The notes: a model not told the origin generated them from the letters alone. A stretch of DNA of 64,000 bases from Escherichia coli (GCA_005400705.1 GCA_005400705.1_4079.1); one strand, 5' to 3'. Counted from the first letter of the stretch, positions 1 through 21,514 are shown. Numbers and translations are program-made.

Positions 1-143
1 ATAAGAGCATCTCTATTGACCTGAAGCACGCAATGAAAGCTGAACTCTATGTAGGAGCACTATTGGGGACAAACTATCAACAAATGTATGTAGACCTATG
101 GATTGATGCATTAGTCAAGGAGGTCCAAAGTAAATGCAAATGA
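1..143 (+). CDS. family A small protein (5' truncated at window edge)
   Basis: ORF runs in from window start, stop TGA 141-143; C-terminal LLGTNYQQ motif shared with downstream array. Confidence 0.55.
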   Translation, partial: KSISIDLKHAMKAELYVGALLGTNYQQMYVDLWIDALVKEVQSKCK

Positions 144-352
144 TTAATTTAAGTAAAGATGAATTTTATGTTCTACTGGCGAAAACTTATTCATTACGCA
201 AGGCCGTTTATGATAGTCACATTATTGAACCAACAAAGAAGTTGATTTTAGTATCTGAGATAAAGATGCTTTCAGTCTTAGGAACAAACTACCAAGAGAA
301 TGCTGTACTGTTGTTAATTGATGCCCTCAAGAGAGAGATACAAAGTAAATGA
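134..352 (+). CDS. family A small protein
   Basis: Tiling ORF; motif VLGTNYQEN; ATG overlaps upstream stop (ATGCAAATGA). Confidence 0.65.
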   Translation: MQMINLSKDEFYVLLAKTYSLRKAVYDSHIIEPTKKLILVSEIKMLSVLGTNYQENAVLLLIDALKREIQSK

Positions 353-588
353 TTCATTTATCTTACCATGATTATCAAAAACGTTTAAATGCATCAAGGG
401 ATATAAGAATTCAAATCTTCAATAACAAAAAATTGAAACCTGACACCAGAAGAATCAAAATAATCGAAGCAGAGTTATGCAACTTCCTGGGGACGAACTA
501 TCAGGCAGGTAAGGTAAAAAACTATCTTAGAGAACTCATGAATTGTATCGAAAATAAATGCGATGCTTTGGAGGATAAAAATGATTAA
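349..588 (+). CDS. family A small protein
   Basis: Tiling ORF; motif FLGTNYQAG; ATGA overlap with upstream stop. Confidence 0.65.
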   Translation: MIHLSYHDYQKRLNASRDIRIQIFNNKKLKPDTRRIKIIEAELCNFLGTNYQAGKVKNYLRELMNCIENKCDALEDKND

Positions 589-838
589 TTTAAATTCTGA
601 TGAATATCATGAACGCATGGCTAAAATCTCAACTAAACGAAATGAAATCTATCACAACCCAGAAATTCAACACAGTAAGAAAATGATTATGATGCGTGAG
701 TTAAAGTTGGGTGTATTCTTAGGAACAAACTATCAAGAACCAGAGGTCCAACGCGTATTAAATGAATTACTAATGGAAATCAGAGGTAAGCTTTACTTTC
801 ATCAAATGACCCAACCACTGAGGTGTACTGTGAAATGA
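581..838 (+). CDS. family A small protein
   Basis: Start re-chosen at ATG 581 (GGAGG 570-574, N-terminus MINLNSDEY like other members); motif FLGTNYQEPE. Confidence 0.6.
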   Translation: MINLNSDEYHERMAKISTKRNEIYHNPEIQHSKKMIMMRELKLGVFLGTNYQEPEVQRVLNELLMEIRGKLYFHQMTQPLRCTVK

Positions 839-1050
839 TCAACATCACATTACAAGAAAGATTCATCCGAATCAACTATGCAATTTCCAAATTAGATGCT
901 ACAATAGGATTTCAAAGTCTACCGTTCAAAACCAGAATGATATTAGAGTGCGAAGCCAGGTTAGGTGTACTGTTAGGGACGCAACACCAACAACGATATG
1001 TGGAAATCTGGATTGATCTTTTAACCCAAAATGCACATGAGAGAATGTAA
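835..1050 (+). CDS. family A small protein
   Basis: Start at ATG 835 overlapping upstream TGA (ATGA); motif LLGTQHQQRY. Confidence 0.6.
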   Translation: MINITLQERFIRINYAISKLDATIGFQSLPFKTRMILECEARLGVLLGTQHQQRYVEIWIDLLTQNAHERM

Positions 1051-1281
1051 ATGCAAAATGAAATGATATACTTAACACATGATGAATTTCAAGAGAAGAT
1101 GTTAAAAGCCAATAACATTACTCTTAAGTTCGTTCCAAATCAATCAATATATGAAATGTCTGCGAATGTATTGTTTGAGAAGCTACCATACGTTCTTGGA
1201 ACTGATAAACAAGAATTTATGGTTCAAAATATGATTGAGCATCTTGCAATGAGTATTATGGAAAAAGTAAATGCAAAATGA
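1051..1281 (+). CDS. family A small protein
   Basis: Tiling ORF; motif VLGTDKQEF; N-terminus MQNEMIYLT repeated in next two genes. Confidence 0.65.
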   Translation: MQNEMIYLTHDEFQEKMLKANNITLKFVPNQSIYEMSANVLFEKLPYVLGTDKQEFMVQNMIEHLAMSIMEKVNAK

Positions 1282-1531
1282 AATGAAATACTTAACATAT
1301 AATGAATACGTCGAGAGATTAGTTAGTGCCAAGAGATATGCCAATCAACTTCCTAATGATCCAAACCAAACCCCAGAGGAAAAGAATGCGGAAGCTCTAT
1401 TCCAAGCACTACCATACCTTCTTGGAACTGATAGGCAGGAGTATCACGTTGAACGTATAATTAAATCTCTTAAAATCACTATTAAGGAAAAAGTAAATGC
1501 AAAAGGAAATGATATACTTAACAGACGATGA
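1271..1531 (+). CDS. family A small protein
   Basis: Motif LLGTDRQEYH; N-terminus MQNEMKYLT; start overlaps upstream stop. Confidence 0.65.
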   Translation: MQNEMKYLTYNEYVERLVSAKRYANQLPNDPNQTPEEKNAEALFQALPYLLGTDRQEYHVERIIKSLKITIKEKVNAKGNDILNRR

Positions 1532-1754
1532 GTTAAAAGAACGATTAATTAAATCCAGAAAACTTACAAATCAACTTCCAAACGACACAAACAAGTCACC
1601 TGCCGAAAGGAGTGCAGAAGTTTTATACATTCAACTCATGTACTTTCTTGGAACTGACAGACAAGAGTATTACATTGAAAGTATGCTTCGATATCTTAAA
1701 TTCTCTATAAAGGAAAAGATACATGCTCAAGAATTTAAAAATCCTAACAGCTAA
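1497..1754 (+). CDS. family A small protein
   Basis: Motif FLGTDRQEYY; N-terminus MQKEMIYLT; close paralog of 1271-1531. Confidence 0.65.
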   Translation: MQKEMIYLTDDELKERLIKSRKLTNQLPNDTNKSPAERSAEVLYIQLMYFLGTDRQEYYIESMLRYLKFSIKEKIHAQEFKNPNS

Positions 1755-1980
1755 TGAATATCATAAGATTGTAATGGAAACTAATAGTGCTTACGCTAAA
1801 AAATCAAACCCAAAGTATATACTGGAACACACATTTGAAGAACGTCAATTAGCTCTAGTTGAAGCAAAACTTCTTGCACTATTAGGAACAAACTATCAGG
1901 AAGAATACAATAGAAAACTAATATACCTTTTAACTAAACACATCAGGAAAAGAAAAAAGCATGAAACACTTGACAGATGA
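1723..1980 (+). CDS. family A small protein
   Basis: Motif LLGTNYQEEY; tiling ORF. Confidence 0.65.
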   Translation: MLKNLKILTANEYHKIVMETNSAYAKKSNPKYILEHTFEERQLALVEAKLLALLGTNYQEEYNRKLIYLLTKHIRKRKKHETLDR

Positions 1981-2191
1981 TGAACATGGGCTTATAGTAA
2001 TGGATGTAATCAACATCGAATTCAAAAAGTTGATACGCTACCGTTGTTATGAAGATAAGCAACTCGTTCTAGCAGAACAGAAGTTGTTTCGACTCTTAAA
2101 CACAAACTACCAAGCACAATACGAAGAATCGTATATGTACCTTTTGGCGAGGAAAGCAAAAAGAGATTATGAAAATTTTAAGCCACGATAA
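1961..2191 (+). CDS. family A small protein
   Basis: Motif LLNTNYQAQY; tiling ORF. Confidence 0.6.
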   Translation: MKHLTDDEHGLIVMDVINIEFKKLIRYRCYEDKQLVLAEQKLFRLLNTNYQAQYEESYMYLLARKAKRDYENFKPR

Positions 2192-2384
2192 ACAAACAGA
2201 ATTGTTAATCTTTAATACAAGTAAATTCTTAAACATAACATTGTCTGATATAGATGAGGATGAAAAAGAGTTACTTAGAGCAGATTTAAGAGTTCTTTTA
2301 TATATTGGAACTAACTTCCAAGAGCAATTCGTTGAGGACTACATCGATGAACTTAAAGAATCTGTACTGAGAACATGCAAATGA
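2169..2384 (+). CDS. family A small protein
   Basis: Motif YIGTNFQEQF; tiling ORF. Confidence 0.6.
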   Translation: MKILSHDKQTELLIFNTSKFLNITLSDIDEDEKELLRADLRVLLYIGTNFQEQFVEDYIDELKESVLRTCK

Positions 2385-2626
2385 AAATCCTTTCACCAAG
2401 TGAATACCACGAACTATTAAGTAGTTTAATTCTAAAATTGTATATAGCAAAGACCACAGATTTACCAGATGAAGAAAAAAATATTCTAATGAGTGAAATC
2501 TATGTTAATTCTACCCTAGGGACTAACTATCAAGAATGTAATATTAATGATTACATCAAAGAACTAAAAAGGTTTATCCAATGCAAATGCGAATCATTAC
2601 CGGAGAAGAATACCGAACAATCATAA
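2375..2626 (+). CDS. family A small protein
   Basis: Motif TLGTNYQECN; N-terminus MQMKILS. Confidence 0.65.
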   Translation: MQMKILSPSEYHELLSSLILKLYIAKTTDLPDEEKNILMSEIYVNSTLGTNYQECNINDYIKELKRFIQCKCESLPEKNTEQS

Positions 2627-2823
2627 ATGGACTGTTTTTGAAGTTATTTGCCATTAACACATCAAAACTACCAGATACGGATAAAATTATTAAGTTAAAT
2701 GAAATCTACGTTCAAGCAACTCTAGGAACTAACTATCAAGAAGCCAATGTTTATAATTACATTAATACACTTAAAAGGGTAATACAATTAAAATGCACAG
2801 ACAGCACATACACAAACCCCTAG
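2581..2823 (+). CDS. family A small protein
   Basis: Motif TLGTNYQEAN; close paralog of 2375-2626. Confidence 0.65.
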   Translation: MQMRIITGEEYRTIINGLFLKLFAINTSKLPDTDKIIKLNEIYVQATLGTNYQEANVYNYINTLKRVIQLKCTDSTYTNP

Positions 2824-3023
2824 GAACAGCAGAATACATTGAACTAATGGCAGCAAACTTCTCATCCTTTCAGAAACTGATGCAAGAATCAAATAATGAT
2901 TTAGAATATCATATCAAAAGTTCAGATTTAAGATTGTTACTCACTCTAGGAACAGACAGTCAGTACAAATTCGTACAGGAGCATATTAGAGCACTTTTAA
3001 ATGGCATCAGGAATAAACTATGA
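2793..3023 (+). CDS. family A small protein
   Basis: Motif TLGTDSQYKF; tiling ORF. Confidence 0.6.
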   Translation: MHRQHIHKPLGTAEYIELMAANFSSFQKLMQESNNDLEYHIKSSDLRLLLTLGTDSQYKFVQEHIRALLNGIRNKL

Positions 3024-3235
3024 AGGTAATATCAAACCAAGAGTACTTGGCACTATTCAGAAAAAATAGTCAAGAATTTCTGAATCTTGATACAAGAACT
3101 GATATAAGTGAACTTGAAAAAAATCTTTTGCGTTCAGAGATGATAGTACTGACACTCTTAGGAACACAGCACCAAGAGAGAACTGTTAATTCACACATAG
3201 GGATTCTTATACAGATAGTACAGGAAAAGATATGA
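3020..3235 (+). CDS. family A small protein
   Basis: Motif LLGTQHQERT; ATGA overlap. Confidence 0.65.
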   Translation: MKVISNQEYLALFRKNSQEFLNLDTRTDISELEKNLLRSEMIVLTLLGTQHQERTVNSHIGILIQIVQEKI

Positions 3236-3453
3236 GAATCATAACACAACAAGATATTCTTAAGTTCACAAGGGTTCATGCATCTGAATTTGATGCTATA
3301 TTATCAAAAAGTTACAACAACCCTTATACAGAAGATGTACACTACAGTGAATTATGGGTGTATATACTTTTAGGTACAGATCATCAAGAGCAAGCAGTAC
3401 AGAAGTATTTGTTAGCGTTAAGTACTGCTACTGCTAATGGAGTATGTGTTTAA
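3232..3453 (+). CDS. family A small protein
   Basis: Motif LLGTDHQEQA; ATGA overlap. Confidence 0.65.
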   Translation: MRIITQQDILKFTRVHASEFDAILSKSYNNPYTEDVHYSELWVYILLGTDHQEQAVQKYLLALSTATANGVCV

Positions 3454-3454
3454 T

Positions 3455-3697
3455 ATGAAAGTACTGACAGAATTAGAAATGTATCATAGATTTAATAAGT
3501 ACTATCATTTACTTAAACCTATACAGAGGATTAAGTGTCCCTTTGTAGTGAAACAGGTATTAATTTATGAGCATAAGTTATTTGTATCATTAGGTACGAA
3601 TGAACAAGAGTATTATTTGAAGTTGTACTTAATTACTTTAATTGAATTGATTAATTACAAAACTCAGAAAGCGAAGAAATCTAAAAATGAAAACTAA
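3455..3697 (+). CDS. family A small protein
   Basis: Start re-chosen at ATG 3455 (GGAG upstream, directly after upstream stop); motif SLGTNEQEYY. Confidence 0.6.
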   Translation: MKVLTELEMYHRFNKYYHLLKPIQRIKCPFVVKQVLIYEHKLFVSLGTNEQEYYLKLYLITLIELINYKTQKAKKSKNEN

Positions 3698-5306: not shown

Positions 5307-5667
5307 ACAAGTAATATTCCTTTTGAATACAAGAAGTGAAATGTATACAGAGTTTAAAGAGATTAATGCATTTTATCAGAATTTTGTAATTCAAGAGTTC
5401 AGTGATTTAATTACAGATGCATTATTTGAATTATCGGAAAAATACAAAGGAACAGAGTTCAGTGTTAAAAATGTATTACGTTCTTTATCAACGCGTATAA
5501 TAAAATTAGATCATTTCAAATTTGAAAATAAAGATTTATTCAGTCACAATCCAAGTACAGCTTTATATTTTATTCCTGATTCAGACAAAAATCATCCTAT
5601 TCATTACGGATGGATTTTGTCGTACATAGTACAAGGAAAGGAGTATCCTATTAAATGGAACGATTAG
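5278..5667 (+). CDS. hypothetical protein
   Basis: Tiling 129-aa ORF; possible degenerate B-like core (NAFYQNFVIQ). Confidence 0.5.
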   Translation: MNPTIVQDLKQVIFLLNTRSEMYTEFKEINAFYQNFVIQEFSDLITDALFELSEKYKGTEFSVKNVLRSLSTRIIKLDHFKFENKDLFSHNPSTALYFIPDSDKNHPIHYGWILSYIVQGKEYPIKWND

Positions 5668-5815
5668 GGCGATTAGATTATTACACAATTAATACAAATT
5701 ATTTGTTGCGTAATATAAAATCCGATTACAAAATATGGATAAAGAACAGAGATAGTATGTGTTATGAATTTTATTTAGATTATGCCATCAAACGCTTTTT
5801 AAGAGAAGAACATTA

Positions 5816-6007
5816 ATGCACACACCGCACAAAGAGCACAAAAATACAAAAACGATAAATGTTTTAAATGATTCTTTATTGGTGAGTATAAATTTATATT
5901 ATAAAATTCATTTAAATGGTGGTATTGAAAATTTTAGTTATTATTTGAGTGCAATATCGCAAGAGCATTTAATATACCAAGATCATTTATTGCACCCGAA
6001 TCCATAA
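5816..6007 (+). CDS. hypothetical small protein
   Basis: 63-aa ORF in AT-rich gap between arrays; no motif, no clear RBS. Confidence 0.25.
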   Translation: MHTPHKEHKNTKTINVLNDSLLVSINLYYKIHLNGGIENFSYYLSAISQEHLIYQDHLLHPNP

Positions 6008-6015
6008 GGCGAATT

Positions 6016-6561
6016 ATGAATGAGATAGAATTATTAGCACACAAGATTAGTACAATAATGCTTATCCTAAATAACAACCATCCTATATCGCAGATAGATG
6101 GAATCCTGAGTCAGAGGACAGGTGGTAGTTTATATTTGACATTAACAGAGGTTATCGCAAGGAATTACATTGATATTGAAATCGAGAACAGTGATGCATC
6201 AGGAAAGGTTGATGTAGGTGCATTAATCAGTTCAAATCCAGTATCAGCATCCCCATTGACCAAAGGTGTTAGTACAGGATTCGAAGGGTATTTGTGGTAC
6301 AATACCAATGATGATTATTTTATATATCAGCATTCCAATACAAATTATGATGAAGACAAATTTCAGTTCATAGACCCTTATGATGAAGCTGAAGTATTTC
6401 AAAAATCATTAATCACAAAACCGCATGAGATGATGTATCTAATGTTATTCAGTACAATGCATTTGAATCCATTAATTAAAGGTTTAAAATTTTATATTCA
6501 ATTAAATTTAGTCCATGTAGTTTATGATTTATTAATGCAAGGATATAGTTATGAAGTATAA
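6016..6561 (+). CDS. family B protein
   Basis: Core motif EAEVFQKSLIT. Confidence 0.65.
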   Translation: MNEIELLAHKISTIMLILNNNHPISQIDGILSQRTGGSLYLTLTEVIARNYIDIEIENSDASGKVDVGALISSNPVSASPLTKGVSTGFEGYLWYNTNDDYFIYQHSNTNYDEDKFQFIDPYDEAEVFQKSLITKPHEMMYLMLFSTMHLNPLIKGLKFYIQLNLVHVVYDLLMQGYSYEV

Positions 6562-6862
6562 AATGATGTATACCCCAGATATGATTTATGTTGAATTAGA
6601 AGATGATGACGATGGGTGGAATTTGATTTATTCAAGAAGTTCAGGTTGGTACATGGCACATTTAAATGATTCGATAGTTACAGATTATTTTGTAGATTTC
6701 AATACATTATCCGATGAAGAATTGTTCCAACAGCAATTAGTGATTGACACGGGTGGTTATGATGTCTTATTATTAAAAAAGATACAAAAAGCTGTTATTG
6801 ATTTTAAGCCCATGATATGGCAAAGGAAATATTATGACCTCGAAGTACCATACCAGCAATGA
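6551..6862 (+). CDS. family B protein
   Basis: Core motif DEELFQQQLVID. Confidence 0.65.
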   Translation: MKYKMMYTPDMIYVELEDDDDGWNLIYSRSSGWYMAHLNDSIVTDYFVDFNTLSDEELFQQQLVIDTGGYDVLLLKKIQKAVIDFKPMIWQRKYYDLEVPYQQ

Positions 6863-7400
6863 AATTCAGTACACCTACGCTAATGCAATCCTTATGGGAC
6901 AAAAGTTAGCTTGTATTGTTGCAGCCTTATATAATGCCCAGAAATATCACAAGCGTCATTTCCACAAATGTATTGGTATTATTCCATCGAAGTACAATAC
7001 ATATATTGCGTGCACGAGTCATTTTGATAAACGATTCAATACACCTGATACCCCAAATGCCAGTAGTGTTATTGGTCTTTTGGATTTCGCACCTGGTGCT
7101 GTTATTGGAAAGAATGATTTAGAGTACACATGGTATAATAAAAATGCCCCGTTAGTAATGGGAAAATATGATACAGAAACGAATAAAACAATAGAGTACA
7201 ATACATATAAATCAGAGGAAGAATTTTTCCAAGGTTCATTGCTTGTACCAGTGCGTTTGTTGTTTTATAATGTCCTTATTAGTACAGTACACAATAGTCC
7301 ATTACACAAGAATCACAAAATTAATTTCAATTTTTGTGCTTATGCGATTGATGGTGTGTATGAGTGTTTAATGGAGGTATTGAGCTATGAAGCTGAATAA
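6834..7400 (+). CDS. family B protein
   Basis: Core motif EEEFFQGSLLV. Confidence 0.65.
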   Translation: MTSKYHTSNEIQYTYANAILMGQKLACIVAALYNAQKYHKRHFHKCIGIIPSKYNTYIACTSHFDKRFNTPDTPNASSVIGLLDFAPGAVIGKNDLEYTWYNKNAPLVMGKYDTETNKTIEYNTYKSEEEFFQGSLLVPVRLLFYNVLISTVHNSPLHKNHKINFNFCAYAIDGVYECLMEVLSYEAE

Positions 7401-10680: not shown

Positions 10681-11021
10681 GTAGATTTTCAGTTTATATA
10701 GTAAACGTCAGTAAAGATGGTAGTTTAATTGAATTTGATGTAGTTGATAACAATGATAATTCATATGGTATTAAGGTACAGGACAATGATGTACAGTTCA
10801 GTACAAGGACAAATTTTGAGAATCCAGTCCAAGTTCCGAATTTCATAGAAGATGAAGCTGCACGATTCCAATACGAAACGGCCTTTGATAATTTAGCGAT
10901 GCATATTATTATGCAAGAAAGTTTAGTTCAATTGCTTCAGGTATTCAGACAAAATATATATGTACATGAAGTGTCGATTAATGGCATTCAAAGTTCCGTT
11001 TTGTTCGGTACAAATATGTAA
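10677..11021 (+). CDS. family B protein
   Basis: ATGA overlap; core motif EAARFQYETAFD. Confidence 0.6.
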   Translation: MSRFSVYIVNVSKDGSLIEFDVVDNNDNSYGIKVQDNDVQFSTRTNFENPVQVPNFIEDEAARFQYETAFDNLAMHIIMQESLVQLLQVFRQNIYVHEVSINGIQSSVLFGTNM

Positions 11022-11031
11022 GGAAAGTACA

Positions 11032-11586
11032 ATGAGTTCAATGAGTTTATTAGATACATTAGAAAAAGACAGAAGTGCCATTAAGAGATTAAAAAATCTT
11101 GTCCAGAGCATTGCGAACAACGCTGAGAAGTTCAGTGACAATCTTAGTATAGGTGATATAACCAGTACAGGAATAAAATCCCTGAAGTCAGATTTATTAA
11201 TTCATAAGGAAGATAAATTATTATTTGTATTGAGTTCAGATTTAATGGTTGCAAGTAATGGTTTCAATTCGATATCAACACAAGATGGTAGCACAGGATT
11301 ATATCTATCACAGGGTGTCCAGACGAACGAACAGAAGTGTTTTAGTTCAGGAGTACAGAATCCCTTTAAGTTCAGTACAGAACAAGCTACAGAGCTTTTA
11401 GAGGCTTCAGAAGAGATGTTATTTCAGTACAAAACGGTTCATACAGATTTTGAATTACGATGCATGTACGCTGTTAAGCATTATGTTCAGGAGTTCGAGG
11501 ATTTAAGTTATCTTTTAGTTCGAACGAATACAAAGAACATTGGTGCATTAGAAGATTACATTTCAAAAGTTGTTAAAGGTTGTTAA
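11032..11586 (+). CDS. family B protein
   Basis: ATG 11032 with AAGGA upstream; core motif EEMLFQYKTVH. Confidence 0.6.
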   Translation: MSSMSLLDTLEKDRSAIKRLKNLVQSIANNAEKFSDNLSIGDITSTGIKSLKSDLLIHKEDKLLFVLSSDLMVASNGFNSISTQDGSTGLYLSQGVQTNEQKCFSSGVQNPFKFSTEQATELLEASEEMLFQYKTVHTDFELRCMYAVKHYVQEFEDLSYLLVRTNTKNIGALEDYISKVVKGC

Positions 11587-11595
11587 AGGGTGCTG

Positions 11596-11757
11596 ATGAA
11601 AGAGTTATTTGAAGAACAGTTCGATACATATGTGGATAATATTCTTTATTCTAGCCGTGCTAGTCAACGAGGAAATCGTGCTTACAACATAGATTACCTA
11701 TTAACGGTGCTGAGTTCACAGTACACCTACGCTGTACAGAGGACATATTATGAATAA
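11596..11757 (+). CDS. hypothetical small protein (53 aa, absent from ORF track)
   Basis: ATG 11596 to TAA 11755-11757 fills an otherwise empty gap; AAGGG upstream. Confidence 0.3.
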   Translation: MKELFEEQFDTYVDNILYSSRASQRGNRAYNIDYLLTVLSSQYTYAVQRTYYE

Positions 11758-11953
11758 TTTTAGAGATGTTGCAAAGGAGAAGTTCAAGTGCAGTTTAGAT
11801 TACGGTTTAAATGATTTTCTTACATGCACAATGTACAGGAATGATGATTATGAGCAATCCGTAATTTCGTTGCACAGATATTTCGAAATAATTTACGCAA
11901 GATATCTTAGAAGGTTAGATGGGATAGGGGATTGGAATTATGATTACGTTTGA
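11750..11953 (+). CDS. hypothetical small protein
   Basis: 67-aa tiling ORF. Confidence 0.5.
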   Translation: MNNFRDVAKEKFKCSLDYGLNDFLTCTMYRNDDYEQSVISLHRYFEIIYARYLRRLDGIGDWNYDYV

Positions 11954-12164
11954 AGAGCCGGAAGTGGTATATTGCTTTAGTGTGAAAGGTTTTGAATACA
12001 TGATGGATTCGATTTTGAAGGATACATATTTGGTTCAGATTGCAGTTACAGATAATACAGATAATGCATTACAGCGTGTAATGAATATGTACGAGAAGAC
12101 AAGTCGAAGGCTTTGTGCAATGAAAAGGATTGAAGAAATCAAGGTTTCTAGGCTGAATAAATAG
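11940..12164 (+). CDS. hypothetical small protein
   Basis: 74-aa tiling ORF overlapping upstream stop. Confidence 0.5.
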   Translation: MITFEEPEVVYCFSVKGFEYMMDSILKDTYLVQIAVTDNTDNALQRVMNMYEKTSRRLCAMKRIEEIKVSRLNK

Positions 12165-12364
12165 AGACGTTTCATTTTGACAGGCCGCAGGGGGGTCAAA
12201 AAAATTTCCGCTGAAAAACATGCTAAGGTATATGTTTAATATAAAGTTTTATATTGTGTTTTTCAGAGTACAGTTTATGTTTCCTGAAACAAAAAAAAAA
12301 TACCCCGCCACCGAACGTGCTCCTTATATTGGAGTTTACCTTATTAATTATAGTAGAGATTAAG

Positions 12365-12742
12365 ATGGAAATAAAATATAATGAATTTTGTGCAAGGACA
12401 TGGATGTACACTGGTGAGTTAGTTACGCACTCTAACTTATACAAGGGTGATTTAAACTACGCTAGGGACAAGATTTTAAAGTACTGGAATGCTGACTTTT
12501 ATTTGATGGATTTTAGTACTGGGTTTAGGGGTAAAGCAACCGAGATGTTGGACTATACAGTACTTGATGATGCTGCACTGTTTCAGGAGGCATTAGTATT
12601 TGATAAGAAGTACATCTGTACATTAGAAGAGATGATTGAATTACAGCGTAGAATTAAATGTATTCACAGGGAATGTATAGATATCTGGTGCAGTACTGGT
12701 GAAGTTGATTTTTGTAATCATTTCAATCTAGGGGAAGTGTGA
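12365..12742 (+). CDS. family B protein (subfamily B1)
   Basis: ATG 12365 preferred over track start 12254; core DDAALFQEALVFDKKYICTLEE. Confidence 0.65.
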   Translation: MEIKYNEFCARTWMYTGELVTHSNLYKGDLNYARDKILKYWNADFYLMDFSTGFRGKATEMLDYTVLDDAALFQEALVFDKKYICTLEEMIELQRRIKCIHRECIDIWCSTGEVDFCNHFNLGEV

Positions 12743-13098
12743 TGGAATTTGATTTTTTAATATCAGTACATTCTTTTAAGCACAGTTTTCAGTACTTTTG
12801 TAATTTAAACAAAGGTGATTTAATGCACAGTGCGAATGAGTATATTCATTTTACTGATGGTAAATTCTCATTTATTGATTACAGTTCATTAGATTTTCCA
12901 TACACTGATATGCCGGACTATACATTGATGGATGCTGGTGAACTATTTCAAGCTGCATTAGTATTTGACAAGAAGTACATCTGTACATTTGAAGAAGTAA
13001 TTACTATACAAAATGAAATGAAGGTGTATGCATCGTTGAATAAACCTAATGAATGTATTAATCAAGAATACAAATTCAATATAGGAATTCCAAAATGA
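12739..13098 (+). CDS. family B protein (subfamily B1)
   Basis: Core DAGELFQAALVFDKKYICTFEE; ATGA overlap. Confidence 0.7.
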   Translation: MMEFDFLISVHSFKHSFQYFCNLNKGDLMHSANEYIHFTDGKFSFIDYSSLDFPYTDMPDYTLMDAGELFQAALVFDKKYICTFEEVITIQNEMKVYASLNKPNECINQEYKFNIGIPK

Positions 13099-13454
13099 CA
13101 TATGATTATTCTATGTACTATTATAAGTTACCTAAAGGATGGGACTTGTGCTGTAATCTTATTAAGGGAGACTCGGAACATGAGTTGAGTTTATATATGC
13201 ACTACAAAGATTCTTGTTTTAAATTTATTCATGTATTACATGATGGCTATGACTATGAATCTGAGAGTCTTATAGATTATACAGTACTGGACGATGGTGA
13301 ACTATTTCAGGAAGCATTAGTGTTTGATAAGAATAAGTACTCCTGTACATTTGAAGAAATGGTTTCTTTGCAAAATGAAATGAAGAGATTTGAAAAAGAA
13401 AACGTATTTAATCCATCCCCATCAAGAACGAATAATTATTATTTCAATATATGA
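13095..13454 (+). CDS. family B protein (subfamily B1)
   Basis: Core DDGELFQEALVFDKNKYSCTFEE; ATGA overlap. Confidence 0.7.
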   Translation: MTYDYSMYYYKLPKGWDLCCNLIKGDSEHELSLYMHYKDSCFKFIHVLHDGYDYESESLIDYTVLDDGELFQEALVFDKNKYSCTFEEMVSLQNEMKRFEKENVFNPSPSRTNNYYFNI

Positions 13455-13463
13455 GATTATAAA

Positions 13464-13958
13464 ATGACATTACAGAGTTCATTGGAAAAAGCAAAGAAGA
13501 TTCATGAGTACATGAATATGGCAAAAGAAGGTTCAGTTTACGGTGTTTTCAAAGACACAAGTACTCAATATTATGTGCCGGATAACCTCCTTTATAATGA
13601 CTGCTCAGATACAGAAACGTGCGTACTGGATACAGAAACGTGCATACTAGATACCGACCCTAATGATTATGAATGTTTCATTGATATGCATAATGAGTAC
13701 ATGGTCTATATTAATGATGCAGATATTACCATATACAGTACTGACTGCGATTCCGATGACATTATAATTCCGAGTGAAGTACTAGAAGGTCAGTGGGATA
13801 GTGAAGAGTATTACTTCCAACAAAGTACTGTTTACGATGATGAAGTACTTGAAGTATTAGTTATTATGTGGTACTTTAAAAGTATTGGTTCTGGGAACTT
13901 CTATTTCGATTACAGATACGTAACGAAAACTGTAGATAACGGTATTAACAGGGGTTGA
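13464..13958 (+). CDS. family B protein (subfamily B2)
   Basis: N-terminus MTLQSSLEKAKKIHEYM; core WDSEEYYFQQSTVYDDEVLEVLVIMWYFKS. Confidence 0.7.
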   Translation: MTLQSSLEKAKKIHEYMNMAKEGSVYGVFKDTSTQYYVPDNLLYNDCSDTETCVLDTETCILDTDPNDYECFIDMHNEYMVYINDADITIYSTDCDSDDIIIPSEVLEGQWDSEEYYFQQSTVYDDEVLEVLVIMWYFKSIGSGNFYFDYRYVTKTVDNGINRG

Positions 13959-13959
13959 A

Positions 13960-14430
13960 ATGAGTTTAGAAAGAGCATTAGAGATTGCGAAGTTAATTGA
14001 TTTATGCAGCAAAGAAATTGTATCAAATTGTCTCAATGGATATCTATTCAAGGAAGGTAAATCATATTGTCGAATGATATACGATGACAGTAGTGAATAT
14101 ATCCATATGTATGAAGAAAACTTAGATGATTCTGACATAGTACTCACAGGATGTGATGTTAATTTGGAAGATAATTACATGTACTTCTGCCGTGATGCTG
14201 ATATTTTAATCCAAGATTCATTAATTCAAACAGGTGCACCAGAGGTATATCTTCCGTATTCAGTACTGGATAATAACTGGGGTAGTGAAGATTACTATTT
14301 CCAGCAGAGTACTATATATAATGAAGATATACTTGACAAACTTGTTATTTCTTGGTACTTTCATAACACGGATTATAGTAGCTTCTACATAGACTTGGAT
14401 CTACTAAGAGTACTTAAAGAGGATATATGA
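13960..14430 (+). CDS. family B protein (subfamily B2)
   Basis: N-terminus MSLERALEIAK; core EDYYFQQSTIYNED. Confidence 0.7.
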   Translation: MSLERALEIAKLIDLCSKEIVSNCLNGYLFKEGKSYCRMIYDDSSEYIHMYEENLDDSDIVLTGCDVNLEDNYMYFCRDADILIQDSLIQTGAPEVYLPYSVLDNNWGSEDYYFQQSTIYNEDILDKLVISWYFHNTDYSSFYIDLDLLRVLKEDI

Positions 14431-14867
14431 GTTTAGAAAAAGCACTAGAACTAGCCAACAAAATACATCAGTACCATGATAAAATAAAAAGTGGGTTCTA
14501 TGCTGATAAAGTACATGCATATGGGAATGAATATTACCTCACTGGAGTAAAGAGATACTCTAATGATATTTTACTTATGGGTCATGATAAAGACAATAAT
14601 ATACAGTACTCTTCATGTAGTCAATATACTAGTTTTATGGTATATATTCCTGGTACTAAGATTACTTTTGACACATCAAATACACCTGTTGACTTCGGAG
14701 TACTTGATGGCCCGTGGGGTACTGAAGAGTATTACTTCCAACAGAGTCTCATTTTTAACCAAGAAATGCTTGATTCCTTGGTTGTGTTGTGGTACTTTAA
14801 GGAATTGAATTTTGAACCATTCTTTCTTGACTGGGGATCATGTGAGTATTTAATTTCAGGGGAATAA
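14427..14867 (+). CDS. family B protein (subfamily B2)
   Basis: N-terminus MSLEKALELANK; core EEYYFQQSLIFNQE. Confidence 0.7.
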   Translation: MSLEKALELANKIHQYHDKIKSGFYADKVHAYGNEYYLTGVKRYSNDILLMGHDKDNNIQYSSCSQYTSFMVYIPGTKITFDTSNTPVDFGVLDGPWGTEEYYFQQSLIFNQEMLDSLVVLWYFKELNFEPFFLDWGSCEYLISGE

Positions 14868-14869
14868 TA

Positions 14870-15358
14870 ATGTCATTACAAAGTGCATTGAAAGAAGCAA
14901 AGAAAATTCATGAGTACATGATTATGGTACAGGAAGGTTCAGTACCAGGTGTATACAAAACATCAGATACGGAATTCTTCGTTAAGGATAGAGATGATTA
15001 TGACGAATCAGAGGTATGTGCAGAAACATTAGTACTGCACACTGATACTGGTGACAGTGATAACTGTGAATATCATATGTACAACCAGTACATTAGTTAT
15101 TGCCGTAATGAAGATATTACCATCTACAACACAGATAGTGATGCTGATGACACTATCATTCCTTATTCAGTACTGGAAGGTCAGTGGGATAGTGAAGAAT
15201 ATTACTTCCAGAATAGTACTATCTACAATGAAGAAGAACTGGATGTTATTGTGATTATGTGGTATTTCAAAAGTATTGACTCCAGTAGTTTCTATTTTGA
15301 TTATGAATATGTAGAGAATACAGTAGGAGAAGGTAATGTCATTACAAAGTGCTCTTGA
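14870..15358 (+). CDS. family B protein (subfamily B2)
   Basis: N-terminus MSLQSALKEAKKIHEYM; core EEYYFQNSTIYNEE. Confidence 0.7.
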   Translation: MSLQSALKEAKKIHEYMIMVQEGSVPGVYKTSDTEFFVKDRDDYDESEVCAETLVLHTDTGDSDNCEYHMYNQYISYCRNEDITIYNTDSDADDTIIPYSVLEGQWDSEEYYFQNSTIYNEEELDVIVIMWYFKSIDSSSFYFDYEYVENTVGEGNVITKCS

Positions 15359-15788
15359 AAAAGCAAAAGAACTACATGGATACTTTGAAGATATAAAGGC
15401 CGGAAAGTTCAAAGAAGTGTACAAAGCCGAGAACGGTAACTACTACAAAGATGAAATGTATAATAACTCCGTTAGTGTAAGGGTTATTCTTGGGTTGAAT
15501 TCCAATAGTCCTATATCGTTTTCTGAATACAATAGAGATGCAGAATTTATTAGTTATGTTGAAAATGGTAGCATTCGTTTTATTAATAGACAAAAACCAT
15601 TAATTTTGAATTATGAAGTACTGAATGGTCCGTGGAATAGTGAAGAGTATTACTTCCAAAACAGTACTGTATATGATGATGAAGTACTTGAAGCATTAGT
15701 TATTATGTGGTACTTCAAGAGTGTTAGCTGTCCTCGATTTTATTTGGATTTCGAAGATCTTCGTAAAGATCCAGAAGGTATAGAATGA
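15336..15788 (+). CDS. family B protein (subfamily B2)
   Basis: N-terminus MSLQSALEKAKELH; core EEYYFQNSTVYDDEVLEALVIMWYFKS. Confidence 0.7.
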   Translation: MSLQSALEKAKELHGYFEDIKAGKFKEVYKAENGNYYKDEMYNNSVSVRVILGLNSNSPISFSEYNRDAEFISYVENGSIRFINRQKPLILNYEVLNGPWNSEEYYFQNSTVYDDEVLEALVIMWYFKSVSCPRFYLDFEDLRKDPEGIE

Positions 15789-16099
15789 AAAACTTATTCA
15801 GTGTTCAGTACGTTCCTGGTGAAATTGGTTTATTGTATCTATTTGACCATGATAATTCATTATTACTAGTAGTGAAGAAATGCCAAGCTAGTTCGTTTGT
15901 TGAATACATTCACGATAGTGAATACATTCCTGATTTCCTAGAGTGTGATTATCACGATGAACATGAATCATTTATTTTTCAGGAATCACTCGTTTGGAAT
16001 AAGTCTATTAACTTCTTTACGTTAATTGAATTACAAAAGCAGGTGAAGTATCATTGGGATTACTTAATTACACAGGATTACATTGAGATAGAAATATAA
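15785..16099 (+). CDS. family B protein
   Basis: Core ESFIFQESLVWN; ATGA overlap. Confidence 0.65.
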   Translation: MKNLFSVQYVPGEIGLLYLFDHDNSLLLVVKKCQASSFVEYIHDSEYIPDFLECDYHDEHESFIFQESLVWNKSINFFTLIELQKQVKYHWDYLITQDYIEIEI

Positions 16100-16407
16100 T
16101 GACTAAAAATGAATTTGATTCACTTTGTACGGTTTATAATTCATTGACAGAAATACCTGACTTTATTAATTACATTTCAGCTTTAAATCAAATTATGCAT
16201 AGTTTTGAACAATCGTTTGAAGAGAAATATGCAGGTAGAAAAGTTCTATGTCATATGTCAATGTACTTGGGAGATGGTGAGCCTTACACTACCAGTACTA
16301 CATGTGAAATAAAAAAATATAATATATTATTGGGGACAATAGAATTCAAGGTATCCAATGGTGGTAGTTATATGTACTTTAGAGATGGAGTGGTTGAATT
16401 ATTATGA
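16099..16407 (+). CDS. family D-like small protein
   Basis: Motif EEKYAGRKVLCHMSMY; tiling ORF. Confidence 0.55.
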   Translation: MTKNEFDSLCTVYNSLTEIPDFINYISALNQIMHSFEQSFEEKYAGRKVLCHMSMYLGDGEPYTTSTTCEIKKYNILLGTIEFKVSNGGSYMYFRDGVVELL

Positions 16408-16853
16408 GTTACGAAAGTGCAATCAAGAAAGCAAATGATATTCTAAAAGTTGTTAAGTTCTTCAAAGAAAATCCTGAATACTTAGCTGATGAAAACCATG
16501 ATCACGATGAGAGATTGAGACGAAAAATTGTTTCTTTATTTGACACTAATGCAGATAATTATAGTCTAATTGAGTTAGCATACGATTATATTTCATTGAA
16601 CCGAAACGGAAATTTAGTTAATATAGAAAGACATGAGAGTGAAGAATCTTTTAAAATTTCAGACATTTTATCCCTGAGTACTGAAGAAGGGTACTTCCAG
16701 GGTAGTACTGTTTATGAACAAGGAACACTTGACAATCTATGCACATTCAGTGTAATATATCAGAAATCAGTACTGGATGTATTTTATCTTGACACTGCTG
16801 AACTGGATACACTAACCAATTTTGTTACTACTGAAGAGGCCACATTCGAGTGA
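16404..16853 (+). CDS. family B protein
   Basis: Core EEGYFQGSTVYE. Confidence 0.65.
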   Translation: MSYESAIKKANDILKVVKFFKENPEYLADENHDHDERLRRKIVSLFDTNADNYSLIELAYDYISLNRNGNLVNIERHESEESFKISDILSLSTEEGYFQGSTVYEQGTLDNLCTFSVIYQKSVLDVFYLDTAELDTLTNFVTTEEATFE

Positions 16854-17386
16854 TGAAAGTTAACATCAATGACTTTGATGCATTACAAGATTTATCAAAA
16901 AAGATTCGTATCATCGTACCAGTACTAAAAAAATGCAGTACTGGTTTAATTGATCCTAGTACTGTTGTTAATGAGAAGTACAATTTTCATCGTGTATTAC
17001 AGGGTACAGGTGCATTTCAGAAGTGTGATGTACGTGAGAAACACGTAATTGATACATCATTGTTTTCTATTGGTGCACCTGTGTCGAATAATTCTATTTT
17101 CTTGGATAACGCAGGAAATATTCAACAATTAACATTTAAGAAAAGGAAAAAGAACAATAACATTGGTGTGTACGCGATGAAGTGGGGGCAACCTGATTTG
17201 AAGCGTGAAATTCACATCCCTAAGTACAATTACAATGCATTTGACGAACAGTGTTTTCAACTATCGTGTACTGACCCTGACTATGCAATCATTCAGTTCT
17301 ATATGGAATTGCAGATAGCATTTAATAGTAATTTGTATATTAACTTATTGGCGATGAACATCGATGAAGTATTCAAAAACATTTAA
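16850..17386 (+). CDS. family B protein
   Basis: Core DEQCFQLSCTD. Confidence 0.6.
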   Translation: MMKVNINDFDALQDLSKKIRIIVPVLKKCSTGLIDPSTVVNEKYNFHRVLQGTGAFQKCDVREKHVIDTSLFSIGAPVSNNSIFLDNAGNIQQLTFKKRKKNNNIGVYAMKWGQPDLKREIHIPKYNYNAFDEQCFQLSCTDPDYAIIQFYMELQIAFNSNLYINLLAMNIDEVFKNI

Positions 17387-17582
17387 TCGAATTGAATACA
17401 TGAGAACTGTGAGTGCAGTGTGGGATATATGGTTCACTACTAAACCAAAAATGGATTACCATGACTTTAAGCTATTGTTCTTCATTGGCTCTAACAAACA
17501 GGATGTTGCAATGAAGGGTTATATTCAGCACTTACAGGAACTAATACAGAAGAGGGTTAATGAAAATAATAGACCAAGATGA
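17364..17582 (+). CDS. family A-like small protein
   Basis: Motif FIGSNKQDVA; start could instead be ATG 17400. Confidence 0.5.
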   Translation: MKYSKTFNRIEYMRTVSAVWDIWFTTKPKMDYHDFKLLFFIGSNKQDVAMKGYIQHLQELIQKRVNENNRPR

Positions 17583-17751
17583 TATTGCTAAACTATTCAA
17601 TATATATTCTACTAGAATGATGCAAACAGACTCATATAGTACTGAATTCAAAGAGTTGAAAGTACTGATGTACTTGGGAACCCAATATCAGGAACAAGTT
17701 ATTTTGGAATATATTAATTCGTTGAAGAAGGATATCCGTTATGTACGATGA
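17560..17751 (+). CDS. family A small protein
   Basis: Motif YLGTQYQEQV; isolated inside the B array. Confidence 0.6.
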   Translation: MKIIDQDDIAKLFNIYSTRMMQTDSYSTEFKELKVLMYLGTQYQEQVILEYINSLKKDIRYVR

Positions 17752-20552: not shown

Positions 20553-21035
20553 ATGTCCAAAGACCTATCATTTAGCAATGCACAAAAAATCGCACAAAAT
20601 ATCATTAAACTTCATAAGTTCCTTTTAACAGTTAAAGAGAATATAATTCTCCCACGATGCACACTTTATGCGTACAAAAATTATTTGTCAATGAATAGCA
20701 ATTTGTTGCATACTACAGATGAGAATTTCTGTGGTATTCGTGTACTTGACGATGCACCAACAGGGGATTTTATCTCATATTGTTTCCATACATCTGATAG
20801 TTTTAAGTACTATCATCCTAGATTTAATGATGATGAATATGAATATGACACATTTAATGTTAGATCAGAAGAAGAATTCTTCCAGTACAGTACTTTGTAC
20901 AATGAGAGAATCGTGTTTAGTTCTACAATTTTTACAGTACTTAAAGATGAACTCAATGACGCAGATGATAGATTCTATATGGATTTAAACTTCGTAGATG
21001 AAATCATTGAGTACATGGAGAAAAATGGTCTATGA
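20553..21035 (+). CDS. family B protein
   Basis: Core EEEFFQYSTLYN; downstream of promoter. Confidence 0.65.
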   Translation: MSKDLSFSNAQKIAQNIIKLHKFLLTVKENIILPRCTLYAYKNYLSMNSNLLHTTDENFCGIRVLDDAPTGDFISYCFHTSDSFKYYHPRFNDDEYEYDTFNVRSEEEFFQYSTLYNERIVFSSTIFTVLKDELNDADDRFYMDLNFVDEIIEYMEKNGL

Positions 21036-21514
21036 TTACAACAGAATATGATTACGATGGTGTTTTAGAATTTGCATCTAACATTCATCGCATTGCAAAG
21101 GAGTTCAGAAGTCCCCAACCTTTCGGTGGAATGCCTTTTGGTGGAATGTTCCAATATGACCAATTCAGTTCAACCAAAGGAAGACTTGCCTTTAAAAATA
21201 ATAAGGGCAATCAAGTATATGCTGAGTTCTTTGACGATAATGACTTTCACTACAGAGCTGAATATATTTCATATTGTCAAGGGTCTGATTTGAAGATTAA
21301 CATTGATACATTTAGAGATTCAGTGTTTATCCCTTATAGTGAGTTAGTTTTCATGACAGAAGAAATGTACTTCCAAGGGTCTTGTATTCATGATGCAAAA
21401 GTACTTAATGCTATATTACTTTATGGTGCACTACTTCATCATTACAAATACAAACAACGATTCTTTATAGATTTAGTTGTATACCATCAATGCGTGGATT
21501 ATTTGAATGCATAA
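21032..21514 (+). CDS. family B protein
   Basis: Core EEMYFQGSCIHD; ATGA overlap. Confidence 0.65.
   Translation: MITTEYDYDGVLEFASNIHRIAKEFRSPQPFGGMPFGGMFQYDQFSSTKGRLAFKNNKGNQVYAEFFDDNDFHYRAEYISYCQGSDLKINIDTFRDSVFIPYSELVFMTEEMYFQGSCIHDAKVLNAILLYGALLHHYKYKQRFFIDLVVYHQCVDYLNA

Follow-up and report, generated by a model that had tools for sequence, protein, structure and literature searches.

Positions 12365–15788 of a 64,000-nucleotide (nt) stretch of DNA from an Escherichia coli assembly (GCA_005400705.1), referred to below as the window, carry eight open reading frames (ORFs), g1 to g8, which all lie on the plus strand and whose neighbours abut or overlap by 4 nt, or by 23 nt in the case of g7 and g8. 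An original prediction, made from the sequence alone, had described these genes as two recently amplified sub-blocks of near-identical DNA. Our analysis points to a different history, in which they most probably form two adjacent clades of an old, lineage-specific tandem multigene family, whose products may constitute a non-structural set of host-interaction proteins. Nucleotide comparison of window positions 12000–17000 revealed similarity to 36 records of jumbo phages of Escherichia and Salmonella, among which Escherichia phage 121Q (Asteriusvirus) matched best (97.8% nt identity over 99% of the query), and by this measure the window is part of a 121Q/PBECO4-type (Asteriusvirus) jumbo coliphage. 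It is AT-rich, with a GC content of 29–36%, and almost every gene lies on the plus strand.

Two blocks within a large FQ-motif family

The first block (block A) is composed of three short-type genes, all of which match the same family of the PHROGs database, phrog_15629: g1 (12365–12742; 125 amino acids (aa); E 2e-58), which opens the block, g2 (12739–13098; 118–119 aa; E 8e-58), whose start overlaps the stop of g1, and g3 (13095–13454; 119 aa; E 2e-59). The second (block B) comprises five long-type genes that match phrog_9317, namely g4 (13464–13958; 164 aa; E 4e-66), g5 (13960–14430; 156 aa; E 1e-54), g6 (14427–14867; 146 aa; E 6e-57), g7 (14870–15358; 162 aa; E 1e-65) and g8 (15336–15788; 150 aa; E 3e-59), which closes the block. 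Essentially the whole profile is covered in both cases, and both families are labelled as being of unknown function in PHROGs. Where g7 and g8 overlap (15336–15358), the conserved N-terminal codons of g8 (MSLQSAL) double as the C-terminus of g7 in another frame, an arrangement that is annotated alike in 121Q, PBECO4 and other relatives.

As predicted, the products of g1–g3 share about 20 identical residues around a common core, 19 of them within ~30 residues (DYT..D...LFQ.ALVFDKKY.CT.EE), and those of g4–g8 share both an N-terminal MSLQSALEKAKKIHEY-like helix and a 47-residue core (VL.G.W.SEEYYFQ.ST.Y....L...VI.WYFKS...FY.D). The DNA that encodes them, however, is not near-identical. In codon-aware alignments, whole-gene identity among g1–g3 was 34–43% aa (41–43% between g3 and either g1 or g2) and 53–58% nt, with 46–53% at third codon positions; among g4–g8 it was 30–58% aa and 47–70% nt, with 40–58% at third codon positions, g4 and g7 being the closest pair (58% aa, 70% nt) and g5 sharing 30–37% aa with g4, g6, g7 and g8. 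Aligned without gaps, the cores reached 62–80% nt identity over 99 nt in block A and 66–82% over 137 nt in block B, while the 47-codon core showed 58–79% when aligned by codon. The longest exact match between any two of the genes is 23 nt, and the longest ungapped stretches with at least 95% identity span 41 nt (g4/g8), 35 nt (g4/g7) and 35 nt (g1/g2). Since there is no exact repeat longer than 23 nt, the collapse of these genes in short-read assemblies, of which the prediction had warned, is not a realistic concern. A naive global nucleotide alignment gave 61–75% for all pairs, even unrelated ones; this was a gap-placement artefact in AT-rich DNA, and codon-aware alignments were used instead.

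The grouping into two blocks is nonetheless sound. BLASTP E values inside the blocks ranged from 1e-17 to 1e-58, compared with 1e-4 to 1e-11, or no match, to other members of the family, and distant members share 15–31% aa and 36–46% nt (codon-aligned) as against the 47–70% nt seen within blocks. By these measures, g1–g3 and g4–g8 are genuine sub-blocks, and the tightest and youngest clades of the family.

That family is large. A hidden Markov model (HMM) of the motif region matched 42 plus-strand ORFs at E<0.01 between 3687 and 44035, with 40 of the 42 lying between 3.7 and 31.7 kb; all of g1–g8 were among the matches (E 7e-17 to 3e-18), and the equivalent 50 kb of 121Q holds 43 family members. 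Members are recognised by the motif (E/D)(E/D)x[Y/L]FQxS (consensus of the 42: [ST]-E-E-E-[YL]-F-Q-x-S-[LT]-[VIL]-[YHF]-[DN]), in which F and Q are invariant in 42/42 and a Ser follows two residues later in 31/42. The invariant Phe is encoded by TTC in 20 members and TTT in 22, the invariant Gln by CAG in 25 and CAA in 17, and the Ser by both AGY and TCN codons. Because the codons at these residues vary, the constraint acts on the protein rather than on the DNA. On the same codon evidence, we rejected the possibility that the core is due to a repeat at the level of the DNA, for example a binding site. Within the core, the short (~100–137 aa) and long (~146–218 aa) types proved homologous by hhalign (probability 93.9%, E 1.5e-7), and the short-type members do not have the N-terminal segment of the g4–g8 type. 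Small, soluble and mostly acidic, the proteins have a median isoelectric point (pI) of 4.8, with g4, g5 and g7 at 4.05, and a grand average of hydropathy of at most 0.14, so that no member is strongly hydrophobic. When 1.84 billion representative proteins were searched with a profile, just 113 matched at E<=1e-3; sequence profile searches of the PDB found no relatives, and a tblastn search with a divergent metagenomic member (P0038) found no match among isolated phages.

Age of the duplications and remodelling of the array

Syntenic one-to-one orthologues of g1–g8 with 70–100% aa identity were found in 121Q, PBECO4, SHEFM2K and WPEC3, the sole exception being g4 in WPEC3; the g4 orthologue is also absent from phage ph0011. 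The orthologues of g1, for example, share 98% aa in 121Q, PBECO4 and SHEFM2K and 88% in WPEC3, while g2 is 100% identical at the protein level to 121Q gene 368 and about 81–82% identical to its counterparts in PBECO4, SHEFM2K and WPEC3. Second-best matches in the four relatives were paralogues, at 30–58% aa. By the Nei-Gojobori method, the synonymous divergence (dS) of orthologues was 0–0.8, with ratios of nonsynonymous to synonymous divergence (dN/dS) of 0.04–0.58 (0.04–0.07 for g7), whereas paralogue dS was 0.82–2.5 or not computable owing to saturation, and paralogue dN was 0.29–0.73. Moreover, identity matrices calculated for the core and for the remainder of the genes both clustered by orthologue, not by genome. 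Since each gene has its own orthologue in divergent relatives, and paralogue dS exceeds orthologue dS, the duplications predate the sampled Asteriusvirus lineages. Judged by these distances, g1–g3 and g4–g8 arose by tandem duplication before those lineages split, and purifying selection has since maintained every copy as a distinct gene. The description of the blocks as recently amplified is therefore not borne out.

The idea that such repeats act as substrates for recombination fared better, in that traces of conversion, cassette insertion or deletion and gene replacement are all visible, but on a small scale. When g4 of the window was compared with g4 of 121Q, 14/495 positions differed; six of these 14 fall in 13853–13862, and all six carry the base found in g8 at 15692–15701; a run of seven derived sites here matches g8. 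This patch is apparently the signature of short-patch conversion (or templated mutation) from g8 in the window's lineage, and would explain the 41-nt stretch in which g4 (13836–13876) and g8 (15675–15715) are 98% identical. Further candidate conversion patches are a g4-like TGGTACTTTAAAAGTATTGGTTCTG in g7 of WPEC3 and a g8-like TGTCCT...TATTTGGA in g5 of the PBECO4 lineage. In addition, g4 contains a 21-nt tandem duplication (13608–13649; DTETCVL/DTETCIL; 90% identity), which is polymorphic, being present as a single unit in the orthologues P0010, P0011 and P0015.

Alignment of the junction between g1 and g2 (12739–12742) in five phages revealed a cassette of 589 or 529 base pairs (bp) that is extra in 121Q and SHEFM2K. 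It is missing from the window, PBECO4, WPEC3 and E9.1. The cassette contains a truncated copy of the 5′ end of g2 (121Q gene 366, M2K_0104) together with one family gene (121Q gene 367, motif SEEEFFQESTVW, phrog_13866 type), and direct repeats of the g2 5′ end (~80 nt) mark its boundaries; the repeat is identical at 76/78 nt in SHEFM2K and includes exact blocks of 31 and 23 nt in 121Q. The geometry of matches, as opposed to junction alignment, implies its presence in ~10 relatives, including slurp01, EC22.5-2, BF17, CRJP21, G17, Sharanji, phAPEC6 and ECO103 4-12-1. As the cassette is found both in otherwise 121Q-like and in otherwise PBECO4-like genomes, its distribution suggests that it has been lost repeatedly by recombination between the repeats, or exchanged between phages.

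Copy number was taken from the gene tables of nine genomes, the window and eight relatives, with E9.1, EC.P1 and SP27 being judged from annotation tables, plus one EC.P1 and one ph0011 translation. Blocks A and B contain 3+5 genes in the window, PBECO4, E9.1, EC.P1 and SP27, and 4+4 in WPEC3 and ph0011; in 121Q and SHEFM2K, one gene from another subfamily is inserted in addition to the 3+5. In WPEC3 and ph0011 the place of g4, which EC.P1 keeps, is taken by a fourth gene of the short type, 45% aa identical to g2, and a 61-aa ORF. Differences among these genomes have come about through the insertion, deletion or replacement of diverged genes and not through the repetition of one unit. Short repeats at the 5′ ends of genes may occasionally mediate the gain or loss of whole genes.

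While purifying selection acts on these genes, single positions have nevertheless been swapped for other paralogues or very divergent alleles between lineages. One such position is 20553–21032, which holds highly divergent alleles even though 121Q is the nearest relative at 12–17 kb: the family member encoded there is 100% aa identical to its counterpart in phage vB_Ec-M-J and 99.4% to that of Turkey3, but just 57.8% to that of 121Q. Since this protein is closer to that of vB_Ec-M-J than to that of 121Q, the genome of the window is, on this comparison, not 121Q itself but a mosaic of Asteriusvirus lineages.

Given these patches, we asked whether the likeness of the cores of g4, g7 and g8 (and of g1 and g2) might be upheld mainly by repeated gene conversion, that is, by concerted evolution. 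The clustered, templated changes from g8 to g4 and the patches in WPEC3 g7 and PBECO4-lineage g5 are as this model would predict; orthologues of g5 are less alike in the core (82%) than elsewhere in the gene (90–95%); and where g4 and g8 have identical residues they use the same codon at 25/31 in the core versus 14/28 outside it. The patches are nevertheless only 10–35 nt long and core nucleotide identity is still just 58–79%, while core trees cluster by orthologue, not by genome. Conversion also cannot account for the retention of F, Q and S with different codons across 42 members. Concerted evolution therefore appears unlikely as the main cause, and we favour a model in which the core is conserved mainly through constraint on the protein, with occasional very short conversion patches between copies adding to the similarity.

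Predicted fold and possible role of the proteins

Structural models were generated using AlphaFold 2 for one member of each block. In the model of g7 (mean predicted local distance difference test score (pLDDT) 86.7; predicted template modelling score (pTM) 0.82), an N-terminal helix precedes seven strands, which are followed by the short helix that bears EEYYFQ, then by a long helix, a strand and a last helix. The model of g2 (pLDDT 85.4, pTM 0.81) starts with five strands, after which come the motif helix, a long helix and one more strand. As modelled, the two proteins share the same fold order, namely an antiparallel sheet, a short motif helix, a long helix and a terminal strand, to which the g4–g8 type adds the N-terminal helix. 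A Foldseek search of BFVD matched solely uncharacterised proteins of Rak2-like jumbo phages, with a probability of 1.00 for 121Q, Klebsiella RaK2 and Serratia BF and of 0.72–0.75 for Yersinia fHe-Yen9-04 and Cronobacter GAP32, and also Erwinia pEa_SNUABM_47. Among solved structures there was no convincing sequence or fold match above threshold.

The published virion proteome of phage phAPEC6 (Table 1 in Wagemans et al. 2020, PMC7247149) lists no protein from gp347 to gp549. As the phAPEC6 orthologue of g4, gp442c, lies inside this unlisted range, the proteins of the family are probably non-structural, according to this one proteome. On the same strand downstream of the array in 121Q (193985–204968, by offset ~36.5–47 kb of the window), genes are annotated for a DNA methyltransferase, NrdB, an RNA ligase and a polynucleotide kinase/phosphatase; judging from this annotation, the neighbourhood would be of a typical early/middle type. 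Based on the non-structural signs, the neighbourhood and the combination of selection with replacement, we infer that the family members have an accessory role inside the cell, with host factors or defences as their targets. They would be expressed from one long co-oriented operon and could form a diversified host-interaction or counter-defence set, in which the invariant FQ helix would provide a common scaffold or partner site and the variable surface of the sheet the specificity of each copy.

This proposal can be taken a step further, if only tentatively. It is conceivable that the family is a new, clade-confined superfamily, with more than 40 tandem paralogues per genome, that serves Rak2-like jumbo phages as an arsenal against host factors or defences. 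The E-E-x-[Y/L]-F-Q helix would then dock all members to one partner while the variable sheet picks the targets; g1–g3 and g4–g8 would represent the latest rounds of target-driven diversification; and short-patch conversion, together with whole-gene replacement between lineages, would shuffle specificities.

Two other roles for the conserved elements were weighed and appear improbable. The first concerns the motif, since E-x-x-[Y/L]-F-Q with a G, S or different residue after it resembles the sites cleaved by the proteases of tobacco etch virus (ENLYFQ↓G/S) and picornaviruses (3C; LEVLFQ↓GP), so that family members might be substrates of a Gln-specific protease. The consensus of the 42 members has the appropriate form, and three members (6834–7400, 16404–16853 and 21032–21514) contain an exact E-x-x-[YF]-F-Q-G. 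In the models, however, the motif forms part of a confidently predicted helix inside a folded domain (residues 109–115 of g7, pLDDT 95–97; residues 65–73 of g2) and not an exposed linker, and the residue after the Gln also varies (E, Y, L, Q, N), which makes a processing site very unlikely. The second is that the proteins are packaged in the virion like the internal proteins of T4, with the N-terminus of g4–g8 serving as a capsid-targeting signal. The conservation of 16 N-terminal residues in five consecutive genes would fit this idea, as would the inner body described for phAPEC6 capsids (PMC7247149). The same N-terminus is however predicted to be a helix integral to the fold (pLDDT 93–96) and is missing in the short-type members, and the phAPEC6 virion proteome, as described above, contains no protein of the relevant range, gp442c included; we therefore regard packaging as scarcely probable.

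Several observations nevertheless weigh against our preferred reading of an old tandem family of non-structural, host-directed proteins. A single virion proteome cannot exclude packaged proteins of low abundance. Sigma-70-like sites lend no support to the proposals on expression and function, as promoter-like sites were not enriched in a scan of region 11000–17500 (37 found versus 36 expected from shuffling). No Pfam family matched when 10 and then 91 members were scanned. Finally, the dS of g1 and g2 (0.82) overlaps with the highest value among orthologues (0.80), so the youngest duplications are older than the deepest split sampled by only a modest margin; conversion can also lower estimates of dS.

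Related gene families and genomic setting

At least 36 phage records already contain the genes themselves, labelled as hypothetical proteins, and they are also grouped in PHROGs, where phrog_15629 and phrog_9317 give full-length matches (E 1e-55 to 1e-66) and neighbouring genes fall into phrog_13866, phrog_12674, phrog_32253 and phrog_34017. The homologues behind these groups evidently come from 121Q and PBECO4. In PHROGs the family is scattered over many groups with no link between them, however, and neither the FQ motif nor the homology of short and long types is captured. This kind of feature has also been noted before, since tandem gene arrays of the same kind, in the same genus, are mentioned for 121Q (Hua et al. 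2017, PMC5646251) and phAPEC6 (Wagemans et al. 2020, PMC7247149). Neither paper specifies the array, a motif or the age of the duplications, and in the literature on Asteriusvirus paralogues or transcriptomes we found nothing beyond these one-sentence mentions (PMC5646251, PMC7247149). Two adjacent arrays could be meant, the FQ family or one of ~72-aa LGTNYQE proteins (window 134–3697; 121Q genes 318–341), and the published wording, “very similar”, does not fit the 15–58% aa identity of the FQ family. In the window, the LGTNYQE array consists of 16 consecutive genes of 70–90 aa, and in 121Q it extends further upstream; genes of this type also occur at 17364–17751 and probably at 11590–12164.

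Multigene families are well known from large eukaryotic DNA viruses, as in the case of MGF110, MGF360 and MGF505 of African swine fever virus (ASFV) and the host-range families of poxviruses. The FQ family resembles these in comprising dozens of diverged, tandem, small non-structural paralogues that are gained, lost or replaced between isolates, and in having syntenic orthologues under purifying selection. It differs in having a bacterial host and no kinship with them in sequence or structure, and any part that it plays in host range or immune evasion is putative. In the genomic accordions of poxviruses, by contrast, the copies are essentially identical and vary in number within populations. 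The array shares with them its head-to-tail tandem copies, whose number unequal recombination might in principle raise or lower, but its copies are 47–70% nt identical and almost the same number of them is present throughout the genus.

That g1–g8 might nonetheless be such an accordion, made up of young, near-identical copies whose number shifts by unequal homologous recombination and that may collapse in assembly, is suggested by their tandem, co-oriented, same-length units with common N-termini and cores, by the block pairs being the most similar in the family and by the polymorphic 21-nt duplication in g4, but can be dismissed as barely credible given third-position identities of 40–58%, dS of 0.8–2.5 and exact matches of no more than 23 nt, and given individual orthologues for all eight genes down to ~70% aa (g4 in WPEC3 and ph0011 excepted) in genomes with 3+5 or 4+4 genes, two of them with one insert. 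Recent amplification would also leave identities of ~95% or more over a whole unit, as against 58–82% in the cores and a longest patch of this quality of 41 nt, and paralogues closer to one another (30–58% aa) than orthologues are (70–100% aa).

Returning to the reading of an old, selected tandem family, the locus is thus not an instance of recent amplification, of an assembly hazard or of accordion-like copy-number dynamics, but of the way in which a very large family of old duplicates is carried, and slowly remodelled, in the genome of a jumbo phage, where it fills most of ~28 kb out of roughly 350 kb. The remodelling appears to involve three processes: micro-conversion of ~10 nt, the insertion or deletion of repeat-bounded cassettes and the replacement of single genes between lineages. 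As an uncharacterised family restricted to one clade, it offers a moderate lead, rather than a result, for functional screens directed at anti-defence or host takeover.

Immediately upstream of g1 lies a 200-nt stretch without an ORF (12165–12364), the sole sizeable intergenic space nearby. It contains the best promoter-like site of the region (TTGACA-17-AAAAAT, 12177–12205) and is a likely transcription entry point for g1 to g11, as suggested by its sequence. G+C-rich runs (GGCCGCAGGGGGGTC and CCCCGCCACCG) are also present in this gap, and the 121Q annotation places a 41-aa ORF (gene 364) there. No terminator-like sites were found within 11000–17500. A cut point near g1 in the Sharanji record was considered as a physical genome end and dropped, as record starts vary arbitrarily among relatives.

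Downstream of g8, and likewise on the plus strand, are two more distant family members, g9 (15785–16099; phrog_32253) and g10 (16404–16853; phrog_12674). They are separated by a 102-aa gene unrelated to the family (16099–16407; phrog_11429 in the SHEFM2K annotation), and in WPEC3, EC.P1 and ph0011 this gene is replaced by a 147-aa family member that is weakly similar to g10 (reverse-complemented 5631–6074 in WPEC3).

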